Sequence record: OK076929.1
DNA length: 64,000 nucleotides
Source of the DNA: Escherichia phage vB_EcoM_C2-3
Reading direction: 5' to 3' (one strand)
Positions within the stretch are counted from its first letter, which is position 1; each line of letters opens with the position of its first letter. Both the position numbers and the translations under genes were made by a program. The notes beneath the pieces are model-generated. The model made no database searches, was not told the DNA's origin, and saw nothing but the letters and a program-made list of their open reading frames with translations. Positions 6,329 through 58,921 of this stretch are shown here, piece by piece.

Positions 6329-6859
<531 letters not shown>

Positions 6860-25576: not shown

Positions 25577-25616
25577 GAACCTACAATAAATGACTTAATT
25601 GATATGGAGATGGGAC

Positions 25617-26102
25617 ATGATTACAGTAGATAAGTGGTTTAGAATTAATCGTGTTGATACAGGGCTATGTAATTACTGGCCGGAACTTAGTGCAGGTACT
25701 GTCTTTAAAGTTCGTGAACTTGCAAAAGAATGCGAAGATGATATAGAACCTGATACTGGAATTATTGAAATTGAACTTTCCGACGGAAAGATTATTAACA
25801 TCTATGATAAGCCAATTACATACTGGTGTTTGTGGAATACTGAATCCGTTGAAAATGGCGAAATTGAAGAAGTTGTAGAGCGAACTAATCAAGTTGTTCA
25901 GAAGCCTAAAGCCGATTTTCAAGGTGAACGTATTTCATACGCATTAGCTAAATTAGCTGCACAAGAAAATAACGATGGCTATGAAGGTAACCTGATGCAA
26001 GCTGCCGCAGAGTACATTGAATGGCTTGAAACTCAAATTTCTTTTTCTGACCAAAAGATTCGGCAATATAAGCGATTGCATCAAATGTTTTATAATACTT
26101 GA
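25617..26102 (+). CDS. pin: protease inhibitor Pin-like protein (161 aa)
   Basis: 161 aa and position between nrdC and gene 49 match T4 pin; assignment by position and length only. Confidence 0.45.
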   Translation: MITVDKWFRINRVDTGLCNYWPELSAGTVFKVRELAKECEDDIEPDTGIIEIELSDGKIINIYDKPITYWCLWNTESVENGEIEEVVERTNQVVQKPKADFQGERISYALAKLAAQENNDGYEGNLMQAAAEYIEWLETQISFSDQKIRQYKRLHQMFYNT

Positions 26103-26138: not shown

Positions 26139-26315
26139 ATGAAAACCGAATTGGTTTATACTGAAAAGTTAAATGGCGGTAAGGTTTGGAAACTTTTTAT
26201 TAAAGGACATTCTACGGACCCTCATATGACCACTTGCGTAGGAACCTATTCTCGTCCTACTAAAAAGATGATTCGACAGTATAAACGATTGCATCGAATG
26301 TTTTACAATACTTAA
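26139..26315 (+). CDS. hypothetical small protein (58 aa) sharing C-terminal 14 aa with upstream ORF
   Basis: C-terminus IRQYKRLHRMFYNT duplicates IRQYKRLHQMFYNT of 25617 ORF; about 44-bp direct repeat. Confidence 0.4.
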   Translation: MKTELVYTEKLNGGKVWKLFIKGHSTDPHMTTCVGTYSRPTKKMIRQYKRLHRMFYNT

Positions 26316-26326
26316 AAATAATAAAT

Positions 26327-26351
26327 ACCCTTATCTATTTAAGGTAAGGGT
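26327..26351 (+). promoter_or_regulatory. RBS-sequestering hairpin upstream of gene 49
   Basis: accctta / taagggt inverted repeat with AAGG SD in loop/arm, 7 nt before ATG 26358. Confidence 0.4.
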
Positions 26352-26357
26352 TTTATT

Positions 26358-26831
26358 ATGTTATTGACTGGCAAATTATACAAAGAAGAAAAACAAAAAT
26401 TTTATAATGCACAAAACGGTAAATGCTTAATTTGCCAACGAGAACTAAATCCTGATGTTCAAGCTAATCACCTCGACCATGACCATGAATTAAATGGACC
26501 AAAAGCAGGAAAGGTACGTGGATTGCTTTGTAATCTATGCAATGCCGCAGAAGGTCAAATGAAGCATAAATTTAATCGTTCTGGCTTAAAGGGACAAGGT
26601 GTTGATTATCTTGAATGGTTAGAAAATTTACTTACTTATTTAAAATCCGATTACACCCAAAATAATATTCACCCTAACTTTGTTGGAGATAAATCAAAGG
26701 AATTTTCTCGTTTAGGAAAAGAGGAAATGATGGCCGAGATGCTTCAAAGAGGATTTGAATATAATGAATCTGACACTAAAACACAATTAATAGCTTCATT
26801 TAAGAAGCAGCTTAGAAAGAGTTTAAAATGA
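26358..26831 (+). CDS. 49: endonuclease VII (Holliday junction resolvase)
   Basis: 157 aa, recognised as T4 gp49; Cys-rich zinc site CLICQ ... HDHE. Confidence 0.9.
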   Translation: MLLTGKLYKEEKQKFYNAQNGKCLICQRELNPDVQANHLDHDHELNGPKAGKVRGLLCNLCNAAEGQMKHKFNRSGLKGQGVDYLEWLENLLTYLKSDYTQNNIHPNFVGDKSKEFSRLGKEEMMAEMLQRGFEYNESDTKTQLIASFKKQLRKSLK

Positions 26832-28645
26832 CAATTGAAAAAGAAATTGAAGGATTGATTCATAAAACTAATAAAGACCTTTTAAACGAGAATGCTAATA
26901 AAGATTCTCGTGTTTTTCCAACTCAACGGGACCTTATGGCTGGTATTGTGTCTAAACACATTGCCAAAAATATGGTCCCGTCTTTTATTATGAAAGCGCA
27001 TGAAAGCGGAATTATTCATTTCCATGATATTGATTATTCCCCTGCTCTTCCATTTACTAATTGTTGTTTAGTAGATTTAAAAGGAATGCTTGAAAACGGA
27101 TTTAAGCTTGGTAATGCGCAGATTGAAACTCCTAAATCAATTGGCGTTGCTACTGCAATTATGGCACAAATTACTGCACAGGTTGCTTCTCACCAATACG
27201 GCGGAACGACTTTTGCTAATGTAGATAAAGTACTTTCTCCTTATGTTAAACGCACCTATGCAAAACATATTGAGGATGCAGAAAAATGGCAAATCGCCGA
27301 TGCACTGAATTATGCCCAATCTAAAACAGAAAAAGACGTATACGATGCATTCCAAGCTTATGAATATGAAGTAAATACTCTCTTTAGTTCAAACGGACAG
27401 ACTCCTTTTGTAACAATTACATTTGGTACAGGAACTGACTGGACTGAACGAATGATTCAGAAAGCAATTTTGAAAAATCGTATTAAAGGTCTTGGTCGTG
27501 ATGGGATAACTCCTATTTTCCCTAAACTTGTTATGTTCGTTGAAGAAGGTGTTAACCTTTATAAAGACGACCCGAACTATGATATTAAGCAGCTTGCTCT
27601 AGAGTGTGCAAGCAAAAGGATGTATCCTGATATTATTTCAGTTAAGAACAATAAAGCTATCACCGGTTCATCTATTCCTGTTTCTCCAATGGGTTGTCGT
27701 AGTTTCTTGAGTGTATGGAAAGATTCGACTGGTAATGAAATTCTTGATGGACGTAATAATCTTGGTGTTGTAACACTGAATCTTCCTCGTATTGCGTTGG
27801 ATTCTTATATTGGAACACAGTTCAATGAACAGAAATTTACTGAATTGTTCAATGAGCGAATGGATTTATGTTTTGAAGCTTTGATGTGTAGAATTAGTTC
27901 CTTAAAAGGAGTTAAAGCGACTGTTGCTCCTATTCTTTACCAAGAAGGTGCATTCGGGGTTCGTCTTAAACCTGATGACGATATAATTGAGTTATTTAAA
28001 AATGGTAGAAGTTCAGTGTCTTTAGGATACATTGGTATTCACGAATTGAATATTCTTGTCGGTCGTGATATTGGACGAGAAATTTTAACTAAAATGAATG
28101 CTCATCTTAAACAGTGGACTGAAAGAACTGGATTTGCTTTTAGTTTATATTCGACTCCTGCTGAAAACCTTTGTTATCGCTTCTGTAAACTTGATACAGA
28201 AAAATATGGAAGTGTAAAGGATGTTACTGATAAAGGCTGGTACACTAATAGTTTCCATGTTTCAGTAGAAGAAAATATTACTCCGTTTGAAAAGATTTCT
28301 CGTGAAGCCCCATATCATTTCATTGCGACAGGTGGTCACATTTCTTATGTTGAACTTCCTGATATGAAAAATAACCTAAAAGGTCTTGAGGCTGTCTGGG
28401 ATTATGCTGCACAACATTTAGATTATTTTGGTGTTAACATGCCAGTAGATAAATGTTTTACGTGTGGAAGTACCCATGAAATGACTCCTACTGAAAACGG
28501 ATTTGTTTGTTCTATTTGTGGAGAAACTGACCCTAAAAAGATGAACACAATAAGAAGAACATGCGGATATCTTGGAACTCCTAGCGCTGTCCCATGGAAT
28601 TTAGGTAAAATGAAAGAAATGGTAAAACGAGTAAAACATGCATAG
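26828..28645 (+). CDS. nrdD: anaerobic ribonucleoside-triphosphate reductase NrdD (uninterrupted)
   Basis: 605 aa continuous ORF; C-terminal zinc ribbon CFTCG...CSICG and glycyl radical motif RTCGYLG. Confidence 0.95.
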   Translation: MTIEKEIEGLIHKTNKDLLNENANKDSRVFPTQRDLMAGIVSKHIAKNMVPSFIMKAHESGIIHFHDIDYSPALPFTNCCLVDLKGMLENGFKLGNAQIETPKSIGVATAIMAQITAQVASHQYGGTTFANVDKVLSPYVKRTYAKHIEDAEKWQIADALNYAQSKTEKDVYDAFQAYEYEVNTLFSSNGQTPFVTITFGTGTDWTERMIQKAILKNRIKGLGRDGITPIFPKLVMFVEEGVNLYKDDPNYDIKQLALECASKRMYPDIISVKNNKAITGSSIPVSPMGCRSFLSVWKDSTGNEILDGRNNLGVVTLNLPRIALDSYIGTQFNEQKFTELFNERMDLCFEALMCRISSLKGVKATVAPILYQEGAFGVRLKPDDDIIELFKNGRSSVSLGYIGIHELNILVGRDIGREILTKMNAHLKQWTERTGFAFSLYSTPAENLCYRFCKLDTEKYGSVKDVTDKGWYTNSFHVSVEENITPFEKISREAPYHFIATGGHISYVELPDMKNNLKGLEAVWDYAAQHLDYFGVNMPVDKCFTCGSTHEMTPTENGFVCSICGETDPKKMNTIRRTCGYLGTPSAVPWNLGKMKEMVKRVKHA

Positions 28646-29468
28646 GTATTATATAATTTATAAAATAACAAATATAATTAATTCAAAGGAATATATCGGT
28701 GCGCATAGCACCGATAACATAAATGACGGTTATATGGGGTCAGGAACATTGATTCGTGCCGCTTTATTAAAATATGGTAGAAAAAATTTTAATAAAGAAA
28801 TTTTACATGTTTTTGATAATGAAAAACAAATGTATGATAAAGAAGCTGAACTCGTAACCGAAGAGTATTGTCTAAAAGAAAATACATATAATATTAAACC
28901 TGGTGGAAAAGGTGGAACTGCCTATGAACAGACACTTGAACATCGCCGCAAAAATAGTTTAGCAAATAAAGGTAAAAAGAGAACAGAAGAAACTAAAATA
29001 GCTATTTCACGTGCTTTAAAGAAATATAAACGTACGCCAGAGCATCAAGCAAATTTAAATAAAGCCGTAAGCATAGCTATGAAGCGAAAAGATGTTAGAA
29101 GTAAATTAGCTGGAGAGCGGTCTGAGAAAGATAAATTATCTATATCAAACGGTGTTAAAAAATATTACAATTCTTTGAGTGAAGAAGAACGCGAACTTCA
29201 TCGCAAGCGAATTATTGAAGGTAAAAAGAATTCTCCCATGTCATTGGAATCTAGACAAAAGCTTTCAAAAGCTTTAAAAGGACTTCAAGTTGGTTCAAAA
29301 AATCCAATGTATGGAAAAATTTCTCCAACTAGCAAAACCGTTTCAGTTGACGGTATTAAATATGATTCAATTAAAAAGTGCTCAAATGCCATAAAAGTTT
29401 CTAGACATCTTATACTAAAACGCTGTAATTCTACTGATGAAGCTTGGAAAAATTGGATATTATTATGA
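28638..29468 (+). CDS. free-standing GIY-YIG homing endonuclease (Seg-like)
   Basis: N-terminal YYIIYKITN...KEYIGAHS GIY-YIG motif, Lys/Arg-rich DNA-binding tail; overlaps nrdD stop and nrdG start. Confidence 0.7.
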   Translation: MHRYYIIYKITNIINSKEYIGAHSTDNINDGYMGSGTLIRAALLKYGRKNFNKEILHVFDNEKQMYDKEAELVTEEYCLKENTYNIKPGGKGGTAYEQTLEHRRKNSLANKGKKRTEETKIAISRALKKYKRTPEHQANLNKAVSIAMKRKDVRSKLAGERSEKDKLSISNGVKKYYNSLSEEERELHRKRIIEGKKNSPMSLESRQKLSKALKGLQVGSKNPMYGKISPTSKTVSVDGIKYDSIKKCSNAIKVSRHLILKRCNSTDEAWKNWILL

Positions 29469-37123: not shown

Positions 37124-37974
37124 AGAATTTTAAACTTGACATTAATGATGAATTTTTAATAAAGGAATTAGTTGAAAAATTAGCGTTGAGTGAAGAAGAC
37201 GCCAAGTCTTACATTAATTTTATTTCTATGAATTCAACTGTTAAAACTCCAGGTAAAACGGAAGCACATCACGTGCTTCCTAAATCAATATTTCCTGAAT
37301 ATTTAAAATCTACATGGAATTTAGTTAATTTAAGTCATTTTAATCATTTTAAAGCACATTTCTTATTAGCAAAAGGTAAAAATGGAAAAATGCTAAATGC
37401 TTTAAATAGAATGATGTCAGGAAAAACATATAAAAATTTATCTTTAGCCGAAGTTGATTTAATAGCTGCTGAATATAGTTTTATAAAACAAGATGTAAGT
37501 GACACAATATCAAAAAGGCTTCAACAATATTATTCAAATCCGCAAAATAGAAATGCTGCTAGAGAAAGGGCATTAAAATATTTTTCAGTAGCAAAAAATA
37601 GGAAAGATAACAAAGAAAGATTAAATAGTTTTAAAACAAAACAAAAAATTTCAATGGCTTCAAGGGAATGGTTTAATAACGAAGAAAATAAAATTAAACA
37701 CCAAAAGGCTGTTCGTGCTGCTTTATCAAAACCTGAATATAAAATAGCTATATCAAATTCAGTAGCTGCTAGTTGGAAAAATCCGGAGATTAGAAAAGCT
37801 CATATAGCATCTCGACGAAAAGGCTATCATTGGGATAATAAAGATAAATTGTATGAATTGTGGATATCATATAATCGTCCTAAACATGTGATGTTTAGGA
37901 AAATGTTAGTTAAGAACGGATATCCAATAGAGGCTTCATTACAGGCTTTAGTTAAAGAATTTTCTTCATTGTGA
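37120..37974 (+). CDS. free-standing HNH homing endonuclease
   Basis: HNH-like motif HHVLPKS...NLVNLSHFNHFKAH; GTG start overlapping upstream stop; between 47 and 46. Confidence 0.65.
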   Translation: MKNFKLDINDEFLIKELVEKLALSEEDAKSYINFISMNSTVKTPGKTEAHHVLPKSIFPEYLKSTWNLVNLSHFNHFKAHFLLAKGKNGKMLNALNRMMSGKTYKNLSLAEVDLIAAEYSFIKQDVSDTISKRLQQYYSNPQNRNAARERALKYFSVAKNRKDNKERLNSFKTKQKISMASREWFNNEENKIKHQKAVRAALSKPEYKIAISNSVAASWKNPEIRKAHIASRRKGYHWDNKDKLYELWISYNRPKHVMFRKMLVKNGYPIEASLQALVKEFSSL

Positions 37975-42634: not shown

Positions 42635-43003
42635 ATGATTGAAATTACTCTTAAAAAACCTGAAGATTTTCTGAAAGTAAAAGAAACTTTGACTCGTATG
42701 GGAATTGCTAATAATAAAGATAAAGTTCTGTATCAGTCCTGTCATATTCTTCAGAAAAAAGGACTATACTATATCGTTCATTTTAAAGAAATGCTTCGTA
42801 TGGATGGTCGCCAAGTTGAAATGACAGAAGAAGATGAAGTTCGTCGTGATTCGATTGCATGGCTGTTAGAAGATTGGGGACTGATTGAAATCGTTCCTGG
42901 TCAAAGAACTTTTATGAAAGATTTAACTAATAACTTCCGAGTTATTTCTTTTAAACAAAAACATGAATGGAAACTCGTTCCTAAATATACGATTGGTAAT
43001 TAA
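42635..43003 (+). CDS. regA: translational repressor RegA
   Basis: 122 aa, recognised as T4 RegA. Confidence 0.95.
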   Translation: MIEITLKKPEDFLKVKETLTRMGIANNKDKVLYQSCHILQKKGLYYIVHFKEMLRMDGRQVEMTEEDEVRRDSIAWLLEDWGLIEIVPGQRTFMKDLTNNFRVISFKQKHEWKLVPKYTIGN

Positions 43004-43005
43004 GC

Positions 43006-43023
43006 AAGGGGCTTCGGCCCCTT
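43006..43023 (+). terminator. hairpin (aagggg-cttcg-gcccctt)
   Basis: UUCG-loop stem after regA. Confidence 0.45.
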
Positions 43024-46846: not shown

Positions 46847-46992
46847 AAAGCAAAATTATAACAGTGTTGCTTTTAATCTTGATGATTATAATAAGTATAT
46901 ACTATAGTGTAACGGTTCCTCTTATGATTCCAACTATTATTTTAGGTTGGGGTTTATTACTGTTACAAGTTAAATATGAATGTATCAATTGA
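46843..46992 (+). CDS. hypothetical small membrane protein (49 aa)
   Basis: Hydrophobic small ORF, ATGA-coupled to imm. Confidence 0.35.
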   Translation: MKSKIITVLLLILMIIISIYYSVTVPLMIPTIILGWGLLLLQVKYECIN

Positions 46993-55821: not shown

Positions 55822-55829
55822 TATAAATA
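55822..55829 (+). promoter_or_regulatory. late promoter (TATAAATA) upstream of soc
   Basis: Exact TATAAATA about 30 nt before soc ATG. Confidence 0.55.
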
Positions 55830-55860
55830 CACCTGTAATTAAACAATAAAGGAGTTTATT

Positions 55861-56097
55861 ATGGGTGGTTTCGTTAACATCAAGACCTTTACTCATCCAG
55901 CAGGTGAAGGCAAAGAAGTTAAAGGTATGGAAGTTTCTGTAGCATTTGATGTATATTCAAATGAACACCGTATTGCAGATTCTCATTATCAAATCTTTCC
56001 GTCAGAAAAAGCAGCTTATTCTGATGTAGTTTCCGATGCAGCAACTTGGAAAACTAAGAATGCTGCAATGTTTACACCTACAGAAATAGGTGGTTAA
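55861..56097 (+). CDS. soc: small outer capsid protein Soc
   Basis: 78 aa, clear similarity to T4 Soc (GYVNIKTF...SVAF...HYQ.FPSEKAAYS). Confidence 0.85.
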   Translation: MGGFVNIKTFTHPAGEGKEVKGMEVSVAFDVYSNEHRIADSHYQIFPSEKAAYSDVVSDAATWKTKNAAMFTPTEIGG

Positions 56098-58230: not shown

Positions 58231-58241
58231 TTCAAAAAGTT

Positions 58242-58271
58242 GTTTACTTTCCTTTCTAACGATGATATGAT
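58242..58271 (+). promoter_or_regulatory. early promoter
   Basis: gtttac 58242-58247, tatgat -10. Confidence 0.45.
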
Positions 58272-58297
58272 AGCTTCTGAAGTATACGGAGGCTATC

Positions 58298-58921
58298 ATG
58301 ATTATTAATCTTGCAGATGTTGAACAGTTATCTATAAAAGCTGAAAGCGTCGATTTTCAATATGATATGTATAAAAAGGTCTGTGAAAAATTTACTGACT
58401 TTGAGCAGTCTGTTCTTTGGCAATGTATGGAAGCTAAAAAGAATGAAGAGCTTCATCGGCAATTGAATAAAATCATTAAAAAGCATTTAACTAAATCACC
58501 TTATCAATTATATCGTGGTATATCAAAATCGACAAAAGAACTCATTAAAGATTTACAAGTTGGAGAAGTGTTTTCAACGAACAGGGTAGATTCATTTACT
58601 ACTAGTTTGCACACAGCATGTGGGTTTTCTTATGTTGAGTATTTCACTGAAATAATATTTCGCTTAAAAACTGATAAAGCTTTTAATTATTCTGACCATA
58701 TCAGCGATATTATACTTTCTTCTCCTAATACTGAATTTAAGTATACATATGAAGATACTGATGGATTAGATTCAGAGCGTACTGATAACTTAATGATGAT
58801 TGTGCGTGAACAAGAATGGATGATTCCAATTGGAAAGTATAGAATAACTTCTATTTCAAAAGAAAAATTACACGATTCATTTGGAACATTTAAAGTTTAT
58901 GATATTGAGGTAGTTGAATGA
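58298..58921 (+). CDS. modB: ADP-ribosyltransferase ModB
   Basis: 207 aa; R-S-E ADP-ribosyltransferase signature (YRG, STxS region, EQEWMIP). Confidence 0.75.
   Translation: MIINLADVEQLSIKAESVDFQYDMYKKVCEKFTDFEQSVLWQCMEAKKNEELHRQLNKIIKKHLTKSPYQLYRGISKSTKELIKDLQVGEVFSTNRVDSFTTSLHTACGFSYVEYFTEIIFRLKTDKAFNYSDHISDIILSSPNTEFKYTYEDTDGLDSERTDNLMMIVREQEWMIPIGKYRITSISKEKLHDSFGTFKVYDIEVVE

Follow-up and report, generated by a model that had tools for sequence, protein, structure and literature searches.

The leader of gene 49, the gene for recombination endonuclease VII, contains in the phage DNA studied here a hairpin that buries the ribosome-binding site (RBS) and that very probably (we put the probability at roughly 0.85) serves as a temporal translational gate for this gene, orthologous to the one in phage T4. 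The stretch analyzed, hereafter the window, comprises 64,000 nt of Escherichia phage vB_EcoM_C2-3 (OK076929.1). A hairpin that hides the RBS of gene 49 is already known from T4, and the one described here is an ortholog. Current understanding is unchanged by it, in that the window has, with essentially no alteration, a textbook T4 device for silencing a DNA-cutting enzyme until late in infection. The added value is comparative: covariation among relatives backs a structure that in T4 was based chiefly on prediction and on the mapping of transcripts, the promoter motif shifts with the late consensus of the lineage, and most relatives lack the T4 internal GUG start.

We infer where late transcription starts, that transcripts read through from upstream, and how translation is affected, and propose that these elements fit together in the following way. 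Gene 49 closes a run of early genes on the same strand (from nrdC to pin and an ORF of family DUF7279), and transcripts started upstream would read into it. Such read-through transcripts would carry both arms of the hairpin, and an interrupted helix of 18 bp would bury the Shine-Dalgarno sequence (SD) AAGGG together with the first two AUG bases, and 30S subunits would consequently bind poorly. Late in infection, gp55-RNA polymerase would recognize AATAAATA and start at about position 26333, producing an RNA from which the lower part of the helix is missing along with 6 nt of the 10-nt 5′ arm. With most of that arm missing, the helix could not form, the leader would be essentially unstructured, and full-length endonuclease VII would be translated.

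The identity of the locus is clear from several matches. A 1.3-kb segment around the hairpin matches many Tequatrovirus (T4-like) genomes at 99% identity, in which pin, a hypothetical protein, endonuclease VII, and nrdD are annotated, and judged by this similarity the source of the window is a T4-like phage (Tequatrovirus). The ORF at 26358..26831 (+ strand, 157 aa) was assigned to gene 49 because its product matches Pfam Endonuclease_7 (8e-22) and the dimerization domain of T4 endonuclease VII (Endonuc-dimeris, 1.5e-33); further, the gene 49 DNA, at 99% identity, carries an endonuclease VII annotation in many Tequatrovirus records. As in T4, the gene is preceded by tightly packed ORFs on the same strand (nrdC, several small ORFs, pin, and DUF7279). 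Immediately upstream of gene 49, however, the two phages differ: the window has a 58-aa DUF7279 ORF (26139..26315, +; Pfam 3e-17) between pin (25599..26102, +) and gene 49, whereas T4 is without this ORF and has pin in that position.

The original prediction, made from the letters of the sequence, had described an inverted repeat, accctta/taagggt, and its two arms lie exactly as claimed, at 26327-26333 and 26345-26351. The repeat is part of a longer helix, composed of a 10-bp stem and an 8-bp lower extension. In the computed fold, the 5′ arm of the stem (ACCCUUAUCU, 26327-26336, +), for which there is also covariation, and the 3′ arm (AGGUAAGGGU, 26342-26351, +) enclose a 5-nt loop, AUUUA (26337-26341, +). 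The lower extension, found in folds of 81 and 141 nt, pairs AUAAUAAA (26318-26325, +), which is present only on transcripts started upstream, with UUUAUUAU (26352-26359, +), a U-rich tail that gives the hairpin its likeness to a terminator and that reaches into the start codon (A and U); in these longer RNAs U26326 is bulged between the stem and the extension. The SD had been described as an AAGG enclosed by the repeat, 7 nt before the start codon. It is indeed within the hairpin but sits inside the 3′ arm rather than enclosed in the loop, and AAGG (26346-26349) is 8 nt before the ATG, so the spacing of 7 nt holds only if the SD is taken as AAGGG (26346-26350, +). A second AAGG (26341-26344) straddles loop and stem.

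An unstable structure would have counted against the prediction, and the structure proved to be stable: the 40-nt segment has a minimum free energy of -13.8 kcal/mol, compared with -5.6 ± 2.2 kcal/mol for dinucleotide shuffles (z = -3.78; 0 of 200 as stable). Among the 121 ATG-ORF starts in the window, the gene 49 leader from -32 to +3 is the third most stable (-12.9 kcal/mol, vs. a mean of -2.3 and sd of 2.8). Both figures argue against a chance hairpin without function, a reading that could appeal to the shortness and A+T-richness of this intergenic region and to a motif that is one mismatch away from TATAAATA. In a search of Rfam no family reached its gathering score, the best match being ohsC_RNA (26.5 bits vs. 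50).

The late-promoter motif AATAAATA (26320-26327, +) is identical in T4. It deviates at one position only, an A at -13, from the T4 late consensus TATAAATA, which spans -13 to -6 (PMC1524935), and A for T at -13 is the commonest variant, found in 9 of 50 listed T4 late promoters (PMC2988020). This aataaata had been noted as lying just upstream of the hairpin; it is present, and with its final A, the first base to be paired, it already takes part in the stem. With the motif at -13 to -6 and position 26327 as -6, the predicted late transcription start is an A at 26333 (+ strand, ± 2 nt), the T4 equivalent of which is coordinate 46879 on the minus strand. This predicted start falls inside the 5′ arm, so that of the 10-nt arm only AUCU (4 nt) would remain in a late RNA, and the lower helix would be absent altogether. 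The GenBank and RefSeq records of T4 have no promoter or regulatory features annotated at the gene 49 leader, and a search of one supplementary file of a dRNA-seq preprint (10.1101/2024.04.04.588121) gave no match for a T4 start near 46879 or for gene 49.

Comparing the folding of early and late transcript 5′ ends, the check that the original prediction had named, gave the expected difference. On long RNAs, with 5′ ends set 60 or 150 nt ahead of the ATG, the SD is fully paired (P(unpaired) 0.00) and the AUG has a P(unpaired) of ∼0.2, whereas on RNAs starting at 26331-26335, which fold at -2.5 to -3.5 kcal/mol, the corresponding values are 0.53-0.65 for the SD, or ∼60% unpaired on the late-type RNA, and 0.43-0.48 for the AUG. 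The late-type leader 26333-26400 (-2.5 kcal/mol) has less structure than its shuffled versions (z = +1.6), 193 of 200 of which fold equally well or better. These modeled values, which speak to thermodynamic accessibility only, agree with the proposed gate, in which translation would be off early and on late.

Comparative evidence on the proposed gate comes from related phages. Searching IMG/VR with gp49 yielded 44 loci, with protein identities ranging from 100% to 50%, that include Aeromonas phages Aeh1 and PX29, Citrobacter phages CF1 and Moon, Enterobacter phage PG7, Morganella phage MP1, Proteus phage phiP4-3, and Serratia phage PS2; with T4 and the window added, 46 leaders were available. 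In every one of the 46, N[A/T/C]TAAATA, with TAAATA invariant and in fixed register, abuts a hairpin of -8.8 to -15.1 kcal/mol, and late-type RNAs, with their start placed 6 nt past the motif, reach no more than -0.6 to -5.3 kcal/mol. The hairpin ends 0-7 nt before the start codon across the leaders of relatives. In each distinct leader the predicted SD is 43-100% paired and the late RNA keeps 2-6 nt of a 5′ arm of 9-13 nt; further, the SD is always in the 3′ arm, which ties the hairpin to translation. Aeh1, whose gp49 is 50% identical, and the PX29-type loci have [A/G]CTAAATA in place of [A/T]ATAAATA, and a late-promoter consensus of the CTAAATA type has been reported specifically for Aeh1 (PMC1524935, PMC2988020). 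Thus, the motif tracks the late-promoter specificity of each lineage, and this speaks strongly for its being a promoter.

The stem itself differs in sequence from lineage to lineage while its complementarity is kept: the first three positions and their partners read CCC/GGG, GGU/ACC, AGU/ACU, CGU/ACG, CAC/GUG, CUC/GAG, or GAG/CUC. When spacer and ATG were part of a MAFFT alignment, the variable length of the spacer threw the T4-group 3′ arms out of register, and covariation was instead evaluated on an alignment that stops at the pairing partner of the final A in the motif and is fitted to the structure. In this alignment, which leans towards the structure because it is trimmed at the predicted 3′ end of the stem, standard pairs occupy 96.2% of the cells of 27 distinct sequences, the covariation score was reached by 0 of 500 shuffles, and pairing falls to 42-51% when the partner is slid by 1-3 columns. 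Changes on both sides are seen in 7 of the 10 pairs and amount to 62 cells, a count that overstates the number of independent events because many of the 27 sequences are related. RNAalifold independently recovers 8 pairs, with a covariation term of -2.69. Compensatory changes of this extent, among phages with 50-100% gp49 identity, together with the published work on T4, make a chance hairpin in A+T-rich DNA extremely improbable, and it is the covariation that excludes it.

The same sequences help to decide whether the hairpin acts as RNA and on which strand. An element that works at the level of DNA (a cruciform, or a protein-binding palindrome such as an endonuclease VII substrate or operator) would be in keeping with the overlap of the inverted repeat and the promoter motif and with the ability of endonuclease VII to cleave branched and cruciform DNA, and an antisense RNA would be in keeping with the folding of the opposite strand (-10.3 kcal/mol, z = -2.9). 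However, one pair is a U-G wobble in 19 of the 27 sequences, and these U-G pairs, along with those in further cells, would turn into A-C mismatches if the other strand were folded; together with the weaker fold of the antisense strand, this points to the sense-strand RNA as the folded species. Arms of 10 bp are also short for cruciform extrusion. Further, the sequences of the arms are unconserved and only their complementarity is kept, which argues against a site for a sequence-specific protein. The cruciform, operator, and antisense readings were rejected on the basis of the wobbles, the unconserved arm sequences, and the weaker antisense fold, and we regard a role of any of these kinds as very improbable.

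Termination of transcription is another function to which a hairpin at this position can be assigned, and a consensus scan for rho-independent terminators does flag 26327-26351 with the tail TTTATTATGT (10 pairs, 4 of them G-C, and a loop of 5) as one of 4 such sites in the region, where 1.3 would be expected. In addition, the orthologous hairpin of phage JB75 (MH355584.1, 122420-122442; 1029-1051 of our locus L047) is annotated as “rho-independent terminator; discovered using MFOLD,” although this annotation is computational only. On such grounds the hairpin could be mainly the terminator of the upstream early unit (pin and DUF7279), with occlusion of the RBS being incidental. We consider this unlikely. 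Rho-independent terminators are alike in having a stem-loop and a U-rich tract, but here the U tract is unconserved: only 2-4 T are found in the 8 nt past the stem in PS2, phiP4-3, MP1, locus L040, and the Aeh1-type leaders, and the T-rich tails that occur outside the T4 group are simply the codons ATG TTA TTG. The features that relatives do share are an SD within the 3′ arm and a promoter motif at the 5′ arm, and the stem is G+C-poor, with no more than those 4 G-C pairs (-12.9 kcal/mol). Moreover, the coupled downstream gene needs read-through. The ATG of nrdD (26828..28645, +, 605 aa) overlaps the stop codon of gene 49 (ATGA, 26828-26831), and sigma-70-like matches inside gene 49 are only weak (9/12), with no convincing nrdD promoter among them, so efficient termination at the hairpin would cut off nrdD.

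Part of the effect of the hairpin could still be transcriptional, because the hairpin with its UUUAUUAU tail fits a simple terminator pattern and one record annotates a terminator, and a partial or additional role as a terminator or 3′ stabilizer is possible in the T4 group. The label in JB75 is probably a mis-annotation, or denotes a secondary role at best, and for annotation purposes the gene 49 hairpin should not be labeled simply as a terminator.

The counterpart of the proposed translational gate in T4 is nearly identical. From AATAAATA to the ATG, the window has the sequence of T4 (NC_000866, minus strand) except for one extra T, and the leader is for this reason taken to be the ortholog of the T4 element. 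Stem, loop, SD, and downstream genes (49, then nrdD) are the same in both phages. The extra T lies between stem and ATG, where it makes the SD spacing 7 nt rather than the 6 nt of T4 and results in a longer lower helix (long-RNA fold of -20.4 kcal/mol, vs. -18.6 kcal/mol in T4). The likeness to the T4 gene 49 switch, which the original prediction had put forward as a comparable arrangement, is supported by this near-identical leader, by the folding, by the covariation, and by reviews of T4.

One component of the T4 system is probably missing from the window. In the work of Barth, Powell, Trupin and Mosig (1988, Genetics 120:329), long early transcripts of T4 reportedly hide the first RBS and give rise to a 12-kDa peptide from an internal start, and an 18-kDa protein is said to come from short late transcripts. 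The internal GUG start of T4 (codon V53, annotated as 49′ in AF158101) is GUA in the window (26514-26516), and because of this codon the nested 12-kDa product is probably not made there. Across the 44 related loci, codon 53 is GTT in 28, GTC in 6, GTA in 4, GTG in 4, and ATT in 2. Going by codon 53, early transcripts would be expected to give no gp49-derived product in the window, making the gate all-or-none, and nested gp49′ seems to be specific to T4 and a few strains.

For the T4 family as a whole, we are evenly divided about a broader reading, according to which a promoter-in-hairpin module is ancient in the family (from T4 to Aeh1), its stem having been rewritten many times and its motif tracking late sigma specificity. 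As part of that reading, the gate would be all-or-none in most lineages (the internal GUG is absent in 40 of 44), the nested early protein would be peculiar to certain strains and no part of the conserved design, and the hairpin may in the T4 group be a partial terminator as well.

Leaders built on the same principle are found at other genes, both in the literature and in the window. In T4, inhibitory structures that hold the SD and/or the AUG in a helix are described for genes e, soc, 49, and I-TevI, and late-promoter transcripts of gene e, which are without the 5′ strand, are well translated (PMC3014915); Barth et al. 1988, on gene 49, is cited among the cases of RBS sequestration (PMC2988022). 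In T4 e and soc, the 5′ strand of the helix over SD and AUG either contains TATAAATA or borders on it, and this strand is missing from late transcripts (PMC3014915); compared with gene 49, however, these are different genes with unrelated stem sequences, and gene e has two late promoters. When all TAAATA-type motifs in the window were scanned for a following hairpin, the top matches included genes 49, e, and soc. Gene e (lysozyme, 6365..6859; leader 6331-6367) has two TATAAATA motifs and a hairpin of -10.9 to -13.3 kcal/mol over the SD and AUG, and soc (55861..56097; leader 55822-55863) has TATAAATA and a hairpin of -12.3 kcal/mol that buries AAGGAG and the AUG. The Soc protein encoded in the window is 78 aa long and starts with MGGFVNIK. 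The leaders of I-TevI, I-TevII, I-TevIII, segB, and mobE of Aeh1 are similar in that the RBS is hidden on early/middle read-through transcripts and freed on those from a late promoter at the hairpin (PMC2988022). The I-TevI-type genes are mobile endonucleases located in or beside host genes, whereas gene 49 is a core gene of recombination and packaging.

Not every stable hairpin in the window belongs with this group. The most stable leader hairpin (58240-58300; -17.7 kcal/mol, 14 bp) buries GGAGG and the AUG of an ORF at 58298..58921 (207 aa, no Pfam hit) and has, in place of a late motif, a sigma-70-like early promoter (GTTTAC...GATATGAT) ahead of it; going by these elements, it is a different kind of RBS occlusion from the late-promoter gate. 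G+C-rich hairpins at ∼43000-43020 (+) and ∼37265-37285 (-), each of -13.4 kcal/mol (e.g., GGGGCUUCGGCCCC), lie downstream of TAAATA-like motifs and look like ordinary terminators rather than RBS gates.

The surroundings of gene 49 show further differences from T4. Upstream, the last ∼45 nt of the DUF7279 ORF (C terminus ...IRQYKRLHRMFYNT) repeat the 3′ end of pin at 26030-26102 (...IRQYKRLHQMFYNT), and aaactcaaa(a)ttctttttctgac, just upstream of the DUF7279 ORF, also repeats pin sequence. The T4 arrangement looks like the outcome of a deletion between these direct repeats, or else that of the window like an insertion or duplication. Downstream, nrdD is uninterrupted in the window, whereas T4 nrdD has an intron with I-TevII, both of which are absent here. 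It is followed, with an overlap of 8 nt, by a 276-aa ORF (28638..29468) with a NUMOD3 motif and a weak match to the I-TevI DNA-binding domain, which looks like a free-standing homing endonuclease at the place where T4 has mobC.
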